A DNA stretch of 64,000 bases from an uncultured Actinomycetes bacterium. GTDB taxonomy: Bacteria; Actinomycetota; Actinomycetes; S36-B12; UBA10799. How positions within the stretch are numbered: position 1 is the stretch's first letter; every line of letters starts with the position of its first letter. The stretch spans positions 535 through 64,534 of the forward strand of contig CAZJNU010000007.1 in the NCBI GenBank assembly GCA_964547485.1. Reading direction: 5' to 3'. The notes below the pieces were generated by a model. The model had not been told where the DNA came from. It saw only the letters and a program-made list of their open reading frames with translations, and searched no databases. Positions 51,702 to 58,075 of the stretch are shown here, one piece after another. The position numbers and the translations under genes are program-made.

Positions 51702-52178
51702 ATGCGTTTCGCGGAGGAAGTTCGCTATCTCGTCCTGGCCGCCCAGCTCGAGGGCCGACGCCAACTGGCCCGGCAACTGCGCCCTCTCGGACTTACGCCG
51801 TCTCAAGCCGAGGTCCTGCGGGTGCTGGCCGACTATGCACCATTGACCCTCAACGGTTTAGGCCAGCTTCTGGTGTGCGAGAGCGGATCGAGCCCCAGCC
51901 GCTTGGTTGACAGAATGGTGATACGTGAGCTGGTCCACCGACAGCCGAGTGCGGCTGACGGGCGTCAAGTGGAGTTGACACTCACCCCCGCTGGGTCCGA
52001 CCTCGCCGCCCGGGTAGCGGAGGTCGAAGATGCGATGTACGCCGTCATAGATGCGGCTGCCACCCAAGATGCCAGCGCCGGCCTCGATTTCCTCCGCGCG
52101 TTTGTCTCAGGGTCGCCAGCCGGGGACGCGTTGGCCCGTCGCCAGGAGACAGCGCCGGTGGCACGCGGCGGGTCGTGA
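51702..52178 (+). CDS. MarR family transcriptional regulator
   Basis: 158 aa with LTPSQAEVLRVLADYAPLTLNGLGQLLVCESGSPSRLVDRMVIRELVHR. RBS GGAGGAG lies upstream. Confidence 0.85.
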   Translation: MRFAEEVRYLVLAAQLEGRRQLARQLRPLGLTPSQAEVLRVLADYAPLTLNGLGQLLVCESGSSPSRLVDRMVIRELVHRQPSAADGRQVELTLTPAGSDLAARVAEVEDAMYAVIDAAATQDASAGLDFLRAFVSGSPAGDALARRQETAPVARGGS

Positions 52179-52200
52179 CTGTCGTTAGGTAGTTCACGGT

Positions 52201-52216
52201 CCGGCGGCGACGCCGG
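52201..52216. terminator. short GC hairpin between convergent genes
   Basis: ccggcg gcga cgccgg. Confidence 0.25.
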
Positions 52217-52233
52217 CTTGGGTCGCGGCGGCG

Positions 52234-52929
52234 CTATGGAGCGGGAGGCGGCTCGACGTCTAGCCGGTAGCCGACGCCGGGGATGGTGATCAGATATCGG
52301 GGGTGGGCGGGATCCGGCTCTATCTTCTTGCGCAACTGTGCGGCGTAGACGCGCAGGTAGTTGGTCTGCTTGCCGTATCCCGGTCCCCACACTTCACGCA
52401 GGATGTCCGGGCCCGCCACGACCATCCCCTGCGCCCGGGCCAACACCTCCAGACAACCCCATTCGGTGGGTGTCAACCTCACCTGCTCGCCCGAGATCAG
52501 GGTCAACTCCTTGCGCGAGAGGTCGAGCGTGAAGTGCGCAGTACACAGAGTCGGGGCGCCGTGGGCGGGTTCCGCCCGCCGCAGGGCCGCGCGCACCCGG
52601 GCGAGCAGTTCCTCGAAGTCGAACGGTTTCGTCACGTAGTCATCAGCACCGGAATCCAGTGCGGTGATCTTGTCGTAGCGGTCGGCGCGGGCCGAGAGGA
52701 CCAGCACCGGTGTGGTGCTGACGGCCCGGATACTACGCAGCACCTCGATCCCGTCGATATCCGGCAGGCCGAGGTCAAGAATGACGATGTCGGTTGGGGC
52801 CGACATGAATCCCGCTATCGCCGCAGCTCCCGTGGCCGCCTCCACCACCTGGTAGCCACGTGCGGCCAGCGTGATCTGCAGGGCCCGCCGGACTTGCGGA
52901 TCATCCTCGACGAGCAGAAGTTCAGTCAC
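52234..52929 (-). CDS. kdpE: OmpR-family response regulator, KdpE-like
   Basis: 231 aa with receiver motifs LLVEDD, ILDLGLPDIDG and DDYVTKPF. The output domain EVWGPGYGKQTNYLRVYAAQLRKKIEPDPAHPRYLITIPGVGYRL matches the KdpE pattern. The GTG start forms a GTGA overlap with the kinase stop. Confidence 0.85.
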   Translation of the reverse strand: MTELLLVEDDPQVRRALQITLAARGYQVVEAATGAAAIAGFMSAPTDIVILDLGLPDIDGIEVLRSIRAVSTTPVLVLSARADRYDKITALDSGADDYVTKPFDFEELLARVRAALRRAEPAHGAPTLCTAHFTLDLSRKELTLISGEQVRLTPTEWGCLEVLARAQGMVVAGPDILREVWGPGYGKQTNYLRVYAAQLRKKIEPDPAHPRYLITIPGVGYRLDVEPPPAP

Positions 52930-54359
52930 GACGCCACCGGCAATCCGACCACCATGGTCAGGCCGCCCCGCGGTGTCGGAAGGGCGACCAAGGTGGCAGC
53001 CATCGCATCGCAGAAGCCCTTCGCGATTGCCAATCCCAGCCCGAGACCGGCGCCGCCGGTCTCACCGGAGGCGGCGAACGGCTCGAACGGGTTGGCCAGC
53101 CGTTCGGACGAAAGCCCGGGGCCGTGATCCATAACGGCCACCTCGACGCGGTCGCCGACCAACGTCGCCGAACAGATCACCGGGGTCAATGCTGGACTGT
53201 GACGAACTGCGTTGGACATCAGGTTCGCCAGCACCCGCTCCAACAGCCCGGCGTCGGCCTGCACCAGCGGCAGGTCATCGTCAATCCTCAGCAGGATCCG
53301 GTCCGAGGGGACCGACACGGCTGCACTCGCAGCGGCGCCGTCGACTGCGACCGGCGCCAGATTCGCGATCAACTGCCCCGCCTCCAACCGACTCATATCG
53401 AGCAGGTTGGCGATGAGCTCCTCGAGCCGCTTCGCCGAGGCCGCGATGGTCCCCACCAGGGCCCCCCGATCGGCCTCGTCGATACCGGCGTCCACCTCCA
53501 GTGCGGCGGCGGAGATGGAAATCGCAGCCAGCGGCGTCCGAAGATCATGACCGACCGCGGCCAGCAGTGCGGAACGCGCGCGATCCGTTGCCTCCAGTTG
53601 GCCGGCCCGGGAGGCGACTTGGCTGATGCGCCGTGACTGGTGGCTGCGCACCGCGGCCAAAGCCAGTGAATTGAAACCACGGCGGTCCTCGCCGATGACA
53701 TCCGGACCCCAGCCCTGGATCCGGAAACCGTCCACCAATGCCACCTCCACCCTGGGTGCGGAGCCACCACCAGCTGCGGTTCGGTCACCAGCTTCGGACC
53801 ACACCGCAACAGCCGCGCCCTCCGAATCCTGCAACAACAGTCGAGTGAAGGAGTACAACCGCGCTATCTGGTCCAACACCGCGGTCGGGTCCGACGCCCC
53901 CGAGGGCTCGGTGAGAGTCTCCCGAAGCACCGCCGCCTCTACCGATGCCCGCTCGGCGTCGATCCGGAGTCGAATTGCGAGAGTGACGGTGAGACTCGAC
54001 GCGACTGCTGCCACCACGAAGACCACCAACAGGATGATGTCGTCGGTGTTTTGCACGAAGAAGGTGTGGGTGGGGGGGATCAGGTACCAGTTGGCGACCC
54101 CGACCGCAACTACGGCCACCGCGATCGCGATCGCCACGTTGGTCAACGCAGCGACCAACACGACTTCCAGCATCATCAGCAGTAGACCCGAGGTGAGGGT
54201 GACCTCGGGTAGCGCCACCACCAGCCAGGTGGTGAGCCAGAGCGACAGGCCGGCGACCAGCAGCACCACCGCGACCCGGGCGTAGGCCCGATTGTCGCGC
54301 GGCGGCACGAAGACACGCGCCAGCGTCGTCCTAGCTTCGCTCACACCCGAGTATCCCAT
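52926..54359 (-). CDS. sensor histidine kinase, KdpD C-terminal type (DUF4118 membrane domain + HisKA + HATPase) lacking the KdpD N-terminal/Usp domains
   Basis: The TM block ...VANWYLIPPTHTFFVQNTDDIILLVVFVV... is DUF4118-like. The H-box is LLAAVGHDLRTPLAAI and the ATPase G-box is GGAGLGLGLAIAKG. The start is ATG 54359 or GTG 54344 (GTGA overlap with the transporter stop). The track start at 54467 would overlap the transporter by 127 nt. Confidence 0.8.
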   Translation of the reverse strand: MGYSGVSEARTTLARVFVPPRDNRAYARVAVVLLVAGLSLWLTTWLVVALPEVTLTSGLLLMMLEVVLVAALTNVAIAIAVAVVAVGVANWYLIPPTHTFFVQNTDDIILLVVFVVAAVASSLTVTLAIRLRIDAERASVEAAVLRETLTEPSGASDPTAVLDQIARLYSFTRLLLQDSEGAAVAVWSEAGDRTAAGGGSAPRVEVALVDGFRIQGWGPDVIGEDRRGFNSLALAAVRSHQSRRISQVASRAGQLEATDRARSALLAAVGHDLRTPLAAISISAAALEVDAGIDEADRGALVGTIAASAKRLEELIANLLDMSRLEAGQLIANLAPVAVDGAAASAAVSVPSDRILLRIDDDLPLVQADAGLLERVLANLMSNAVRHSPALTPVICSATLVGDRVEVAVMDHGPGLSSERLANPFEPFAASGETGGAGLGLGLAIAKGFCDAMAATLVALPTPRGGLTMVVGLPVAS

Positions 54360-56251
54360 TCGTCGGCAACCACAGTCGGGACACTGGTGACCATCACCCC
54401 GGGCAGGAACAGCAGTCGCGCCTTGAGTCGCAAGGCACTCTGGTTGTGCAGCATCTGCTGCCACCAATGAACGACGACGTACTCCGGCACATACACGGCG
54501 ACGACGTCGCGGGGGGAATCCCGGCGGAGCTGGTTGATGTAGTCGATGACCGGACGTGTGATATCCCGAAACGGGGAGTCAACCAGGGTCAACGACACCG
54601 GAATGTCACGGGCCTCCCACTCTTGGGCCAGCGCCCTGGCCTCCTCCGGATCTGCCGAAGCGTGCAGCGCGACCAAAGTCGACGGTCGGGTGGCCCGGGC
54701 GTAGGCGACGGCGTGCATCACGGGATAGTTCACCCTGGAGACGAGGACCACCGCGTGGACGCGGCTGGGCAACATCACGCCACGATCCGGTGCGGCAAGG
54801 GCCGCATCCACCCGGCCGTAGTGACGTCGGATAGCGATCATCATCAGGACCAGCACGGGGATCGCGATACAGACCATCCAAGCCCCGTGGGTGAATTTCG
54901 AGAACATCACTATCACCAGCACGAGTAGCGTCATCGAGGCACCAACTGCGTTGGCCACCCGAGACCTGCGCATCTTGGCCAGTCCCTCCGCGCCCGGCTG
55001 TCGCATCAGCCGATTCCAGTGGATGACCATGCCCGCCTGGGACAACGTGAACGAGACAAAGACGCCGATGATGTACAGCTGAATCAACCGGGTGGTACTG
55101 CCGTCGAAGACGTACACCAGCGCCACCGCCACCAGGGTCAGCATGATGATGCCGTTGCTGTAGACCAGGCGGTCCCCGCGGCGCCCCAGTTGCCGGGGCA
55201 GGTAGCCGTCGCGACCGAGGATGGAAGCGAGCACCGGGAAACCATTGAAGGCGGTGTTGGCCGCGAGGATGAGAATGGCAGCGGTGAAGGCCTGCAGCAG
55301 ATAGAAGCCGATCCCGTTGGCGCCGAAGACAGCCATCCCGAGTTGGGCGATGATGGTCGGCTGGATGGCATCCGGGGGCAGTCCCAGTTCCGCCGGGTCC
55401 TCCGCGATCTTCGCGCCCGACGATACGGCCAGCCAGGTCACGCCGGCGAACATGACGATCGCGATCGAACCCATCGTCAACAGCGTCAACGATGCGTTGC
55501 GAGACTTCGGCCTGCGAAAGAACGGCACTCCGTTGCTGACCGCCTCGACACCTGTCAGCGCCGTGCAACCCGAGGCGAAAGCCCGCAAGATCAGGAAGAC
55601 GAGTGCCATCCCGGTCAGGGTCGGCGTTGACACCGGCAAATCCGCCGACTCCGCCCGGACAGGATCCCCGAGCACGGTGCTGACGAACGCCGAGATGAGC
55701 AGAAACGCCACCGCCGCGATGAACCCGTAGGTGGGAATCGCGAACGTCGTGCCGGATTCCTTGACCCCTCGCAGGTTCATCAGGGCGAGTCCGATGATGA
55801 GCACTCCGCTGACCAGCACCAGATGCTCATTGACCACCGGGAAAGCGGAGGCGATGTTGGCGACCCCGGCGGTGACGGAAACGGCCACCGTCAGCACGTA
55901 GTCGACCAGCAGCGCACTGGCCGCAACCAACGCCGGCATCGCGCCGAGATTGTCCTTGCTCACGGCGTAGGCGCCGCCGCCGTTGGGGTACGCATAGACA
56001 GTCTGTCGGTAGGACCACACAACTAGCGCCAACAGCGCAATAACCGCCAGCGCAACCGCGGGGGTAAACAGAAGCGCTGAGGCACCGCCGACGACGAGTA
56101 CCAGCAGGATCTGCTCAGTCGCGTAGGCGACCGACGAGAGCGGGTCACTGCAGAAGACCGGTAGCGCCAACCGCTTCGGCAGCAGCGTCTCCCCCAGCGA
56201 ACCTGTGTTCATCGCACGGCCGAGCAACATGCGCTTGATCGGATTGGCCAT
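54341..56251 (-). CDS. APC-superfamily transporter resembling KimA (YdaO) K+/H+ symporters
   Basis: 636 aa: 12 TM helices plus a ~170-aa cytoplasmic C-terminal domain. The motifs IKRMLLGRA, FCSDPLSSVAYATEQIL, SYRQTVYAYPNGGGAYAVSKDNLG, LLVDYVLTVAVSVTAG, LRAFASGCTALTGVEAVSNGVP, LAANTAFNGFP, RGDRLVYSNGII and MLHNQSALRLKARL match my recollection of B. subtilis KimA. Confidence 0.7.
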   Translation of the reverse strand: MANPIKRMLLGRAMNTGSLGETLLPKRLALPVFCSDPLSSVAYATEQILLVLVVGGASALLFTPAVALAVIALLALVVWSYRQTVYAYPNGGGAYAVSKDNLGAMPALVAASALLVDYVLTVAVSVTAGVANIASAFPVVNEHLVLVSGVLIIGLALMNLRGVKESGTTFAIPTYGFIAAVAFLLISAFVSTVLGDPVRAESADLPVSTPTLTGMALVFLILRAFASGCTALTGVEAVSNGVPFFRRPKSRNASLTLLTMGSIAIVMFAGVTWLAVSSGAKIAEDPAELGLPPDAIQPTIIAQLGMAVFGANGIGFYLLQAFTAAILILAANTAFNGFPVLASILGRDGYLPRQLGRRGDRLVYSNGIIMLTLVAVALVYVFDGSTTRLIQLYIIGVFVSFTLSQAGMVIHWNRLMRQPGAEGLAKMRRSRVANAVGASMTLLVLVIVMFSKFTHGAWMVCIAIPVLVLMMIAIRRHYGRVDAALAAPDRGVMLPSRVHAVVLVSRVNYPVMHAVAYARATRPSTLVALHASADPEEARALAQEWEARDIPVSLTLVDSPFRDITRPVIDYINQLRRDSPRDVVAVYVPEYVVVHWWQQMLHNQSALRLKARLLFLPGVMVTSVPTVVADEWDTRV

Positions 56252-56440
56252 ACAGCCAGCAAATCCTCGCGCAGACGTGCGGGCCAGCGGCGCTAACGCA
56301 GCCTTGACGGATCGGCTGACGTCTTCACGCGTTCTTTACGCGGACCTTGGCAGAGACAGTCAGGTGGAACCATGGAGCCGGGGCCGCCCCTGCACCCACG
56401 CCAGTCGTCCGCGGCACAGCGAACCGAGGCCAACCTGAGC

Positions 56441-58075
56441 TTACTGCTCGGCCTTCTTCGGTGAACCCTTCGTCCTTTTGGTCGCCGTCGTCTTCTTCAC
56501 GCCAGCACTCTTGGCGCCTGCCTTTCTGGCTGGCGCCTTCTTCACGCCTGCCTTCTTTGCGGGCGCCTTTTTCACGCCTGCCTTCTTTGCGGGCGCCTTT
56601 TTCACGCCTGCCTTCTTTGCGGGCGCCTTCTTGGCTGGCGCCTTCCTGGCCGACTTCTTCTTCGCGGGCGGACCCAACGGATCCCACTGGGGTACGTCGA
56701 CTTGGCTGAGTTTCGCGAATCCGTGGCGCATGCACTCCATCAGCAGCGCATGGTCGGTCACGGCCGCATCATCCATCGCGACGCCGATGGTGGCATCCCC
56801 GTGATAGGTCAGCAAAGCCACGAACACTGCCGCGCCGATCGGCGGCGGCAGCGGGATCATCTGCTCCACAGCTGCTCCGGCCAGGAATACCGGCACCGGT
56901 GGACCCGGCACGTTCGACGCGGTCACGTCACTGGCGGTGGCCGCCGCCGAGATGACCTCGAACGGGATGAACCGGCTGATTTCGGCCAACTGGTCGGCGA
57001 ATCCGAGGGCAGGTTCGGCTCGCCAGGCAGTCACCGTCCTGCTGATCTCATCCATCAAGGCGACTGGATCACCCTCGGACGTGTTGACCGTGAAGTGCGC
57101 GATAGTGACAGCGTTCTGGGCGTGGTCGTCGGATTTGCGGAGGCTGATGGGCATGTTCAGATTCAATTCAGCCACCGGAGTGCCCTGCCGCCGGTGGTAC
57201 TCCCCCATCGCTTCGGCAACTGCCGCCAGGTAGGCGTCATTCAGCGAATGGCCAGTGGCTTTGGATGCCCCACGCAGATCAGAGAACTTCAACTGGAAAG
57301 CGCCGTAATGGTAGTTGATACTGCGCGCGGTCATGATCGGTGACAGTCGCACGGTCGGGGGCCGGGCGAACCGCACCAGCGAACCGGCCACCTCAGAGAG
57401 TTGCGCGATCGCATCGCTGGGATCCTGCAGGAACCGCATCGCTGCCGGCACGGCCAGGCCGGCCACACCTTTAGCCGTCTTGACCACCCAGTCGACATTG
57501 TCCCGAATCATCAGTTCCGCGAACGACAACGAAGAAATCGACTCCCCCCGCGGCGCCCGCGGCATGGGGCCGAGCTCGACACCCTCCGGCGAGAGGTCGA
57601 CCAAAGCAGCGCCGAGCTGCAACGCACCCTGGCCATCAGCCACCGCGTGATGAAGTTTGGTGATGACGGCAGACTTACCGCCGGGCAAGCCCTCCAGCAC
57701 GGTCACCTTCCACAGCGGACGGTCCCGGTCGAAGTCGGTCATGCTCTGCCGGCGGCACTCGTCCAGCACATCTGTGAAGTCCGAACCTTCCGCCATCCGG
57801 AACCGCCGCAGGTGAAACGAGAGGTCGAAGTCGGGGTCGACCACCAGCCTCGGGTTTGCAATCCGGACAGGGCCCTCGACGACCTTCTGCCGCAAGATGG
57901 GGACGACTCGGCTAGCCCGCTCATAGCGGTCGACCAACCGCTGCCAATCCGGTTCCCCGTCAAGGATCAGCAGGCCGATCATGGTCGAACGCATGATCGG
58001 GTCCTCGCTGGCCGCTCGCCAGGTTGCGAAGTCCCAGCCCGAGAGCCGTATTGGGTCGAGCCGTTCCTGAGTCAT
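56441..58075 (-). CDS. wax ester synthase/diacylglycerol acyltransferase (WS/DGAT) with lysine-rich AKKA-repeat C-terminal tail
   Basis: 544 aa with the catalytic motif HHAVADGQG (HHxxxDG) and DRPLW upstream. The last ~75 aa are KKKSARKAPAKKAPAKKAGVKKAPAKKAGVKKAPAKKAGVKKAPARKAGAKSAGVKK... Confidence 0.85.
   Translation of the reverse strand: MTQERLDPIRLSGWDFATWRAASEDPIMRSTMIGLLILDGEPDWQRLVDRYERASRVVPILRQKVVEGPVRIANPRLVVDPDFDLSFHLRRFRMAEGSDFTDVLDECRRQSMTDFDRDRPLWKVTVLEGLPGGKSAVITKLHHAVADGQGALQLGAALVDLSPEGVELGPMPRAPRGESISSLSFAELMIRDNVDWVVKTAKGVAGLAVPAAMRFLQDPSDAIAQLSEVAGSLVRFARPPTVRLSPIMTARSINYHYGAFQLKFSDLRGASKATGHSLNDAYLAAVAEAMGEYHRRQGTPVAELNLNMPISLRKSDDHAQNAVTIAHFTVNTSEGDPVALMDEISRTVTAWRAEPALGFADQLAEISRFIPFEVISAAATASDVTASNVPGPPVPVFLAGAAVEQMIPLPPPIGAAVFVALLTYHGDATIGVAMDDAAVTDHALLMECMRHGFAKLSQVDVPQWDPLGPPAKKKSARKAPAKKAPAKKAGVKKAPAKKAGVKKAPAKKAGVKKAPARKAGAKSAGVKKTTATKRTKGSPKKAEQ
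56541..56630. repeat. 3 x 30-bp near-perfect tandem repeat inside the WS/DGAT 3' end (degenerate copies flank it, ~56511-56660)
   Basis: The unit ttcacgcctgccttctttgcgggcgccttt occurs at 56541, 56571 and 56601 (last base c in copy 3). On the minus strand it encodes (KKAPAKKAGV)x3. Confidence 0.9.

Follow-up and report, generated by a model that had tools for sequence, protein, structure and literature searches.

The stretch of DNA analysed here, 64,000 nt of contig CAZJNU010000007.1 from an uncultured Actinomycetes bacterium (assembly GCA_964547485.1) and hereafter called the window, carries on its minus strand an operon of three genes in the order kimA-hk-rr, predicted to encode a KimA-type K+/H+ symporter, a short KdpD-like histidine kinase, and a KdpE-like response regulator. 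KdpD/KdpE, the textbook example of a two-component system responding to K+, is regarded as the dedicated controller of the Kdp pump, and KimA is known from Firmicutes as an importer controlled by cyclic di-AMP (c-di-AMP). Our analysis argues that the window operon is probably activated by its own products, a KdpDE paralogue that would sense K+ limitation and act on the kimA promoter through KdpE-type DNA boxes. As these boxes precede an operon that the pair shares with kimA, the switch of the Kdp pump probably controls a different importer here. This reading is carried by the order of the genes and their overlaps, by the families to which the three products belong, by boxes that are unique in the genome, and by a linkage that is conserved in other genomes, where the three genes are also inherited together.

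Operon structure and protein families

The earlier note on this DNA had described three minus-strand genes joined by GTGA overlaps, and the positions of the open reading frames as well as the sequence at both junctions bear this out (Table 1). At 54344-54341 (minus), the TGA stop codon of kimA overlaps the GTG start codon of the kinase gene, and a second GTGA at 52929-52926 (minus) links the kinase and regulator genes. The longest open frame of the kinase covers 52926-54467 (minus), and an in-frame ATG at 54359 would be an alternative start, resulting in a 19-nt overlap with kimA. The public protein collection holds the 472-aa product, matching the GTG start at 54344, and the kimA/kinase junction of the closest relative (locus L018) also overlaps by 4 nt.

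TABLE 1 Features of the kimA operon and of its upstream region in the window
Feature	Position	Strand	Remarks
Distal direct-repeat pair (GCGTAAAGAAC GCGTGAAGACG)	56320-56341	minus	half-sites 89 and 78 nt before the kimA ATG; 25.4 bits
Proximal, weaker repeat pair (CCGTCAAGGCT GCGTTAGCGCC)	56289-56310	minus	half-sites 58 and 47 nt before the ATG; 12.0 bits
Putative core promoter with a very short or absent leader	56252-56288	minus	-10-like TTTGCT at 56263-56258, 6 nt before the ATG
kimA-like K+/H+ symporter gene	54341-56251	minus	636 aa (P0001); first in operon
Short KdpD-like histidine kinase gene	52926-54344	minus	472 aa from GTG 54344 (P0004)
KdpE-like OmpR-family response regulator gene	52234-52929	minus	231 aa (P0003)

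The transporter matches AA_permease_2 in Pfam (91 bits) and, weakly, K_trans. In a phmmer search of the PDB, its residues 3-625 aligned with residues 3-602 of Bacillus subtilis KimA (6S3K) at an E value of 7e-126, the alignment taking in the cytoplasmic C-terminal domain, and KimA (6S3K, 8B70, and 8B71) was the sole sequence match at E <= 0.01. The eight residues that coordinate K+ in KimA according to a Caulobacter preprint (D36, Y43, D117, T121, S125, T230, E233, and Y377) all have identical counterparts in P0001 (D36, Y43, D117, T121, S125, T233, E236, and Y393), and these are invariant in four actinobacterial homologues. The earlier assignment to KimA is upheld by the full-length match and by the eight conserved residues out of eight, and the protein did not cluster with the amino-acid APC permeases instead, KimA being its only match in the PDB. 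As far as can be judged from its sequence, P0001 is a KimA-type K+/H+ symporter of the KUP/APC superfamily, not a generic amino-acid permease. The likeness to B. subtilis KimA (YdaO; KUP family) extends over the full length and the K+ site, whereas the mode of control differs. Bacillus uses a c-di-AMP riboswitch together with binding of c-di-AMP to the protein, whereas the window kimA has no riboswitch, no diadenylate cyclase was detectable in the assembly (3.2 Mb, 214 contigs, 91% complete), and KdpE-type boxes and a dedicated two-component system are found instead.

In the kinase, Pfam recognizes only DUF4118 (49 bits), HisKA, and HATPase_c, and finds neither the N-terminal KdpD domain (PF02702) nor a Usp domain. 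The protein aligns co-linearly with residues 387-834 of the canonical 859-aa KdpD of Dactylosporangium (35% identity, E = 4e-44), a stretch that runs from the membrane block through the GAF region to the kinase core, and its start thus corresponds to residue ~387 of canonical KdpD. Its best sequence match in the PDB is the KdpD kinase core 6lgq_C. An AlphaFold2 model (mean predicted local distance difference test score of 80) shows four transmembrane (TM) helices, a small alpha/beta domain at residues 153-212, a DHp hairpin, and a CA domain. With this model, Foldseek returned generic histidine-kinase cores, a phytochrome kinase, and the KdpD core 6lgq_C (TM-score normalized to the target, 0.77), and no solved full-length KdpD was among these matches for comparison of the TM/GAF part. 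The putative GAF-like domain is the weakest element of the assignment and rests on the KdpD alignment and on the phytochrome-type match.

Across 46 homologues of the kinase, no variation is seen in the H-box (HDLRTP) or in the N, G1, F, and G2 motifs. The NCBIfam equivalog model of KdpD (NF007793, cut-off of 1123 bits) gives P0004 111.7 bits, over the kinase core only, a cut-off that is uninformative for this phylum because a genuine actinobacterial 859-aa KdpD, at 485 bits, fails it too. The kinase can be read as the C-terminal half of KdpD, comprising its membrane, GAF-like, and kinase parts. The earlier note had called it N-terminally truncated: it does lack the first ~380 residues of KdpD, but "truncated" is misleading for a member of a large, intact, and conserved family, with 7200 database proteins at E <= 1e-10 and top matches that are all 410-500 aa long and share the same three domains.

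In Escherichia coli KdpD, the N-terminal domain is a serine kinase by which the pump subunit KdpB is switched off, and the suggested K+-sensing sites lie in the TM/GAF part (PMC11018627). The missing N terminus makes sense since the N-domain acts on KdpB while the K+-sensing sites sit in the part that is retained. By analogy with E. coli, a sensor for KimA would need the TM/GAF part and would have no use for a KdpB-directed N-domain, which would find no target here. The TM/GAF/DHpCA architecture is shared with the kinase chain of split KdpDs, in which a KdpD/Usp chain and a kinase chain are separate (Silberberg et al. 2024, PMC11018627, a survey restricted to species in which a Kdp pump is annotated). 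These split kinases have a partner KdpD/Usp chain, whereas the window genome gives no KdpD N-domain match at all and the neighbor of its kinase gene is kimA.

The regulator contains Response_reg (REC) and Trans_reg_C (the OmpR-type winged helix) according to Pfam, and its sequence has the phospho-acceptor aspartate D52 and K101 in place. Its best PDB matches are those of E. coli KdpE (4KFC and 4KNY, E = 2e-53, full length), with which the recognition helix is conserved. The best NCBIfam match is KdpE (NF007820), at 199 bits and below the cut-off of 325 bits, which says nothing here because canonical actinobacterial KdpE misses it too: in one other genome, the canonical KdpE beside kdpCD scored 232.6 bits and the regulator of the kimA-linked module 263 bits, both under 325. 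We built a tree from 24 canonical KdpEs, 62 module regulators, and 10 other OmpR-family regulators of the window genome, and the KdpEs and module regulators formed one clade (branch support of 99, length of 1.26) apart from the 10 same-genome paralogues. The KdpE output signature noticed earlier is thus confirmed by the tree and by the full-length alignment to E. coli KdpE, and P0003 is assigned to KdpE by phylogeny.

Compared with the canonical KdpD/KdpE-kdpFABC systems (E. coli; Mycobacterium smegmatis, PMC5401905), the window operon has in common the TM (DUF4118)/GAF-like/DHp/CA core of the kinase, a regulator of the KdpE clade, the half-site form and 11-bp spacing of the mycobacterial DNA box, and sensor genes co-transcribed with the transporter that is presumably under their control. 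It differs in its kinase, which has no N-terminal KdpD (serine kinase) or Usp domain, in its predicted target, a KimA-type symporter and not a P-type pump (no kdpFABC being found in the assembly), and in its gene order, the sensor genes coming after the transporter gene with 4-nt overlaps.

KdpE-type boxes upstream of kimA

Four half-sites that follow the pattern CGT(C/A/G)AAG(A/G) occur within the 189 nt upstream of kimA, arranged in two pairs with a period of 11 bp within each pair, the half-site closest to the start codon being degenerate. The KdpE site footprinted in M. smegmatis, CCGTAAAGAAACCATCAAGGCC (PMC5401905), has the same half-site form and the same 11-bp period. We aligned the sequences upstream of 62 module loci that come from other genomes, and a box matrix built solely from module loci of other genomes, thus excluding the window site, was scanned over both strands of the 3.2-Mb genome (consensus pair of the matrix, GCGTCAAGAACGCGTCAAGATC). 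The distal pair was the top site genome-wide, its 25.4 bits standing against 18.5 bits for the next site and a maximum of 19.0 bits in shuffled sequence. Moreover, it was the sole match to a degenerate box pattern in the 64-kb window, where 0.04 were expected. The layout of four half-sites, at about -89/-78/-57/-46, recurs in most co-directional operons, L018, L021, L045, L110, and L113 among them, and is thus shared with distant genomes. Among KimA genes without an adjacent pair, the median best box score was -3.9, and at least 15 bits were reached in 5 of 61. Most KimA genes of this kind are thus without boxes, and the second KimA of the window genome, on contig C53, conforms to this. The earlier proposal that the pair may regulate KimA gains support from these promoter boxes and from the conserved linkage of the genes.

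The loci L080, L057, L038, L077, and L046 have no kinase or regulator within 6 kb of their KimA gene, yet a KdpE-type box of 18-26 bits lies upstream of it, which suggests control by a distant regulator of the KdpE family.

In many co-directional loci, the start codon is preceded at 6-7 nt by a hexamer that is T-rich or resembles TANNNT. The fixed distance from box to start codon and this -10-like hexamer together suggest a leaderless or near-leaderless transcript. A scan for intrinsic terminators gave four terminator-like matches, which is not above the shuffled expectation.

In B. subtilis, a c-di-AMP (ydaO-type) riboswitch governs kimA, and such an element in the 189-nt upstream region would make the two-component system irrelevant to kimA. 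Rfam gave no match to a ydaO/c-di-AMP riboswitch in this region at E <= 1, and over 52000-57000 at the same threshold it returned only a chance internal ribosome entry site match inside kimA. The four half-sites, held at a fixed distance from the start codon, fill the region and leave ~40 nt, with no room for a riboswitch of ~120 nt. The diadenylate cyclase domain (PF02457) was found nowhere in the 91%-complete assembly, whereas a control set of 14 reference genomes gave the domain in 11, including Corynebacterium; at this completeness its absence is only a hint, which, if real, would mean that K+ uptake is not under c-di-AMP control. Riboswitch control of kimA can be considered refuted as far as a sequence allows, and we give it next to no probability.

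Genome content and distribution of the module

The earlier note had pointed out that the 64-kb window is without kdpFABC, and this holds for the assembly as a whole, in which neither kdpFABC nor a full-length kdpD was found. KdpA, KdpC, and any P-type ATPase above the KdpB cut-off were absent from the 91%-complete assembly, and so was any match to the KdpD N-domain (PF02702), be it from a full-length kdpD or from a KdpD/Usp partner chain. The other K+ importers of the assembly are Kup (contig C5:14651), TrkH (C109), and a second KimA (C53:8812-10686), which is 58% identical to P0001, has no adjacent kinase or regulator, and shows no KdpE-type box above 12 bits. In reference genomes of the same genus and of the same family, the only KimA type is the pair-less second one (57% and 56% identity to P0001), and the short kinase is missing. 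Hence, the operon with the linked pair is an additional module of patchy distribution.

A functional pair could have its main target elsewhere (kup, trkH, or a kdp operon on unassembled DNA), with kimA merely co-transcribed, and an assembly that is 91% complete leaves room for this. The second-ranked site of the genome scan, made of three phased KdpE-like half-sites at C5:81713-81745 (18.5 and 12.9 bits), lies 330 nt from the end of its contig, and in genomes holding both systems the kimA and kdpFABC boxes are alike, which makes cross talk plausible. However, shuffled sequence yields a site that scores at least as high as the one on C5, neither kup nor trkH has a listed site above 12 bits, and the kimA promoter is the sole site clearly above background in the genome. 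Together with the lack of KdpA in more than half of the genomes carrying the module (see below), this makes a main target other than kimA unlikely.

The linkage of the genes was surveyed from both sides. Among 80 actinobacterial KimA loci, a short kinase and a regulator lay within 6 kb in 15, and canonical kdpDE stood beside kimA in 4. On the kinase side, 300 genomes were sampled evenly across the class; loci were fetched for 54 kinase matches in open frames shorter than ~760 residues and for two matches in longer frames that ranked among the best. A long kinase was defined by a KdpD-N tblastn match, as the length of the upstream open frame misleads in high-GC DNA, where frames stay open by chance. 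Short kinase/regulator pairs were present in 48 of the 300 genomes, i.e., about one in six, and all 48 had a KimA-family gene within ~3 kb, which in one of them is a C-terminal fragment only. The six fetched loci without KimA turned out to be canonical KdpDs or contig stubs. The genes of the module are arranged co-directionally, divergently, or convergently, and we count the persistence of linkage through these changes of orientation in favor of a regulatory pairing. KdpA was absent (E <= 1e-20) from 28 of the 48 carrier genomes, the other 20 holding both systems.

The pair might also be what is left of a decaying kdpFABCDE operon after loss of the pump and of the kinase N terminus, its adjacency to kimA then being accidental and without regulatory meaning. 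This would account for the absence of kdpFABC from the genome, for a kinase without the first ~380 residues of KdpD, and for same-genus and same-family reference genomes that do not have the pair. In contrast, decay agrees poorly with a short form that makes up a large family (7200 proteins, with top matches of uniform length) and with catalytic motifs that are invariant. Every sampled short pair adjoins a KimA-family gene, and the three genes share one tree position. Moreover, full-length KdpD coexists with the short kinase in 20 of the 48 carrier genomes, at times side by side (L016, L138, L147, and L148), which makes the short form a paralogue rather than a remnant. The genome survey largely refutes the remnant explanation, which we regard as very improbable.

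In the kinase tree, the window sequence falls in a seven-member clade (support of 99) with Nanopelagicales-type and same-order genomes, and the same seven members cluster in the KimA and regulator trees with starred support. Recovery of this clade in all three trees indicates that kimA, kinase, and regulator travel together.

The surveys also brought up other arrangements of these genes. The module stands beside a canonical kdp locus in L016, L130, L138, L142, L147, and L148. In L138, L147, and L148, which belong to one genus, the gap of ~4.7 kb holds KdpA, and shared intergenic KdpE-type boxes are directed to the kdp side. These six loci are potassium-uptake superclusters, and cross talk between both regulators is likely in them. 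In L022, L032, L047, and L097 (from Actinoallomurus, Actinomadura, Kitasatospora, and one Streptomyces), a full-length kdpD-kdpE is followed by kimA, which has its own strong box of 25-28 bits in L022 and L032; in some genomes, KimA may thus be driven by canonical KdpE as well. Six loci of one family (L109, L114, L117, L118, L122, and L124) contain two KimA paralogues each, 47-52% and 56-58% identical to P0001, which are in tandem in most of these loci and flank the short kinase/regulator pair in L114 and L117.

Directly upstream of the window operon lies a WS/DGAT acyltransferase gene (56441-58075, minus), whose product has a Lys/Ala/Pro-rich C-terminal tail with weak Pfam matches to HC2 and Extensin-like domains at residues 469-534. 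A WS/DGAT gene is likewise found near the kimA operon of the Nanopelagicales relative L018. An amt-glnK operon is located ~2 kb upstream of the kimA operon, and no functional tie between the two was seen.

Proposed regulation and its significance

We propose a model in which the kimA-hk-rr operon would be a self-contained, autoregulated potassium-uptake unit. The kinase would supply the K+-sensing and signalling core of KdpD, with its four membrane helices and its GAF-like, DHp, and CA domains. Upon K+ limitation, and possibly upon ionic or osmotic stress, it would autophosphorylate at the H-box histidine and transfer the phosphoryl group to D52 of the KdpE-like regulator. Once phosphorylated, the regulator would dimerize head-to-tail on the two 11-bp-spaced repeat pairs, 89-40 nt before the kimA start, and activate a weak promoter, giving rise to a transcript that is probably leaderless or near-leaderless. 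As this transcript would encode the KimA K+/H+ symporter and, via the two GTGA overlaps, the kinase and the regulator, positive feedback would result. The operon would thus serve as an inducible K+ importer in a genome otherwise equipped with Kup, TrkH, and the box-less second KimA, and in which no Kdp pump was found. In this model, we infer the signal sensed, the activating direction of the regulation, and the start of the transcript.

The pair could control the kimA operon and yet sense a signal other than K+, such as osmolarity or ionic strength, pH, ammonium, or the state of the membrane, or it could act as a repressor. The kinase is only 35% identical to canonical KdpD and there are no defined K+-binding residues to compare, M. 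smegmatis kdp responds to Na+ and NH4+ as well (PMC5401905), and the neighboring amt-glnK operon would fit an ammonium signal, despite the lack of a functional tie. On the other hand, the gene under regulation is a K+ importer, and the kinase retains the TM/GAF part, to which the K+-sensing sites of E. coli KdpD have been assigned. As for repression, the boxes end ~40 nt before the start codon, which is the position of an OmpR-family activator, and do not lie over the -10 element or the start. We, therefore, consider another signal or a repressing role rather unlikely, and K+-responsive activation of kimA remains our favored explanation.

Several observations nevertheless weigh against regulation of kimA by the pair through these boxes. 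A scan found no consensus sigma-70 promoter upstream of the gene, such a scan being uninformative for a high-GC actinobacterium, and the proximal box pair is weak, at 12 bits. The matrix is circular for the module loci from which it came, so that the independent tests are the window site and the loci without a pair. At L024, L028, L030, L060, and L085, where the pair is convergent on kimA, no box lies upstream of kimA, and the wiring of the module is therefore not uniform. In divergent loci, the repeats are directed away from kimA and toward the kinase operon; hence, the orientation of a box alone does not tell which gene it drives. A kdp operon or a separate KdpD-N/Usp chain could possibly sit on unassembled DNA, the assembly being 91% complete. 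Finally, the proposed signal is that of E. coli KdpD, and the window kinase may sense a different one.

The five convergent loci show a different and conserved context upstream of kimA, ending in GTGGCCATG, and their wiring may differ.

A full-text literature search yielded no paper linking a KdpD/KdpE-type pair to KimA, and a Streptomyces review names KimA-like genes and KdpDE separately, without connecting them. All the parts of the operon belong to known families, and what is new is the wiring together with the free-standing short kinase; known parts are rewired, and the mechanism itself is not novel. The part of KdpD that senses and signals, the cognate regulator, and the DNA box appear here attached to KimA instead of the Kdp pump. 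This is not a one-off arrangement, as the module occurs in about one sixth of the genomes sampled from the class, most of which are without the Kdp pump when they carry it.

The origin of the short kinase invites a more tentative thought. In the kinase tree, short kinases form at least two groups, with the canonical KdpDs nesting among them. As no outgroup shares the TM/GAF part, the tree is unrooted and fits N-terminal loss as well as fusion. The nesting of canonical KdpDs among short KimA-linked kinases is compatible with a fusion origin and does not show it because of this missing outgroup. There is perhaps a small chance that the TM/GAF/DHpCA kinase and KdpE were an old free-standing sensor of K+ limitation, with KimA as an original or parallel client, and that full-length KdpD arose by fusion of this core to a KdpB-directed serine-kinase/Usp module. 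Were this so, the operons would represent minimal KdpD sensors of natural origin, and the membrane/GAF core alone would sense K+ and could drive any K+ importer.

Whatever its origin, the short kinase is a minimal KdpD provided by nature, in which the signal perceived by the membrane/GAF core could be studied separately from the N-terminal domain, and it offers a natural test of the recent proposal that this domain exists to phosphorylate KdpB. The proposed control of KimA by a KdpDE paralogue may, moreover, explain how Actinomycetota lacking Kdp induce K+ uptake.

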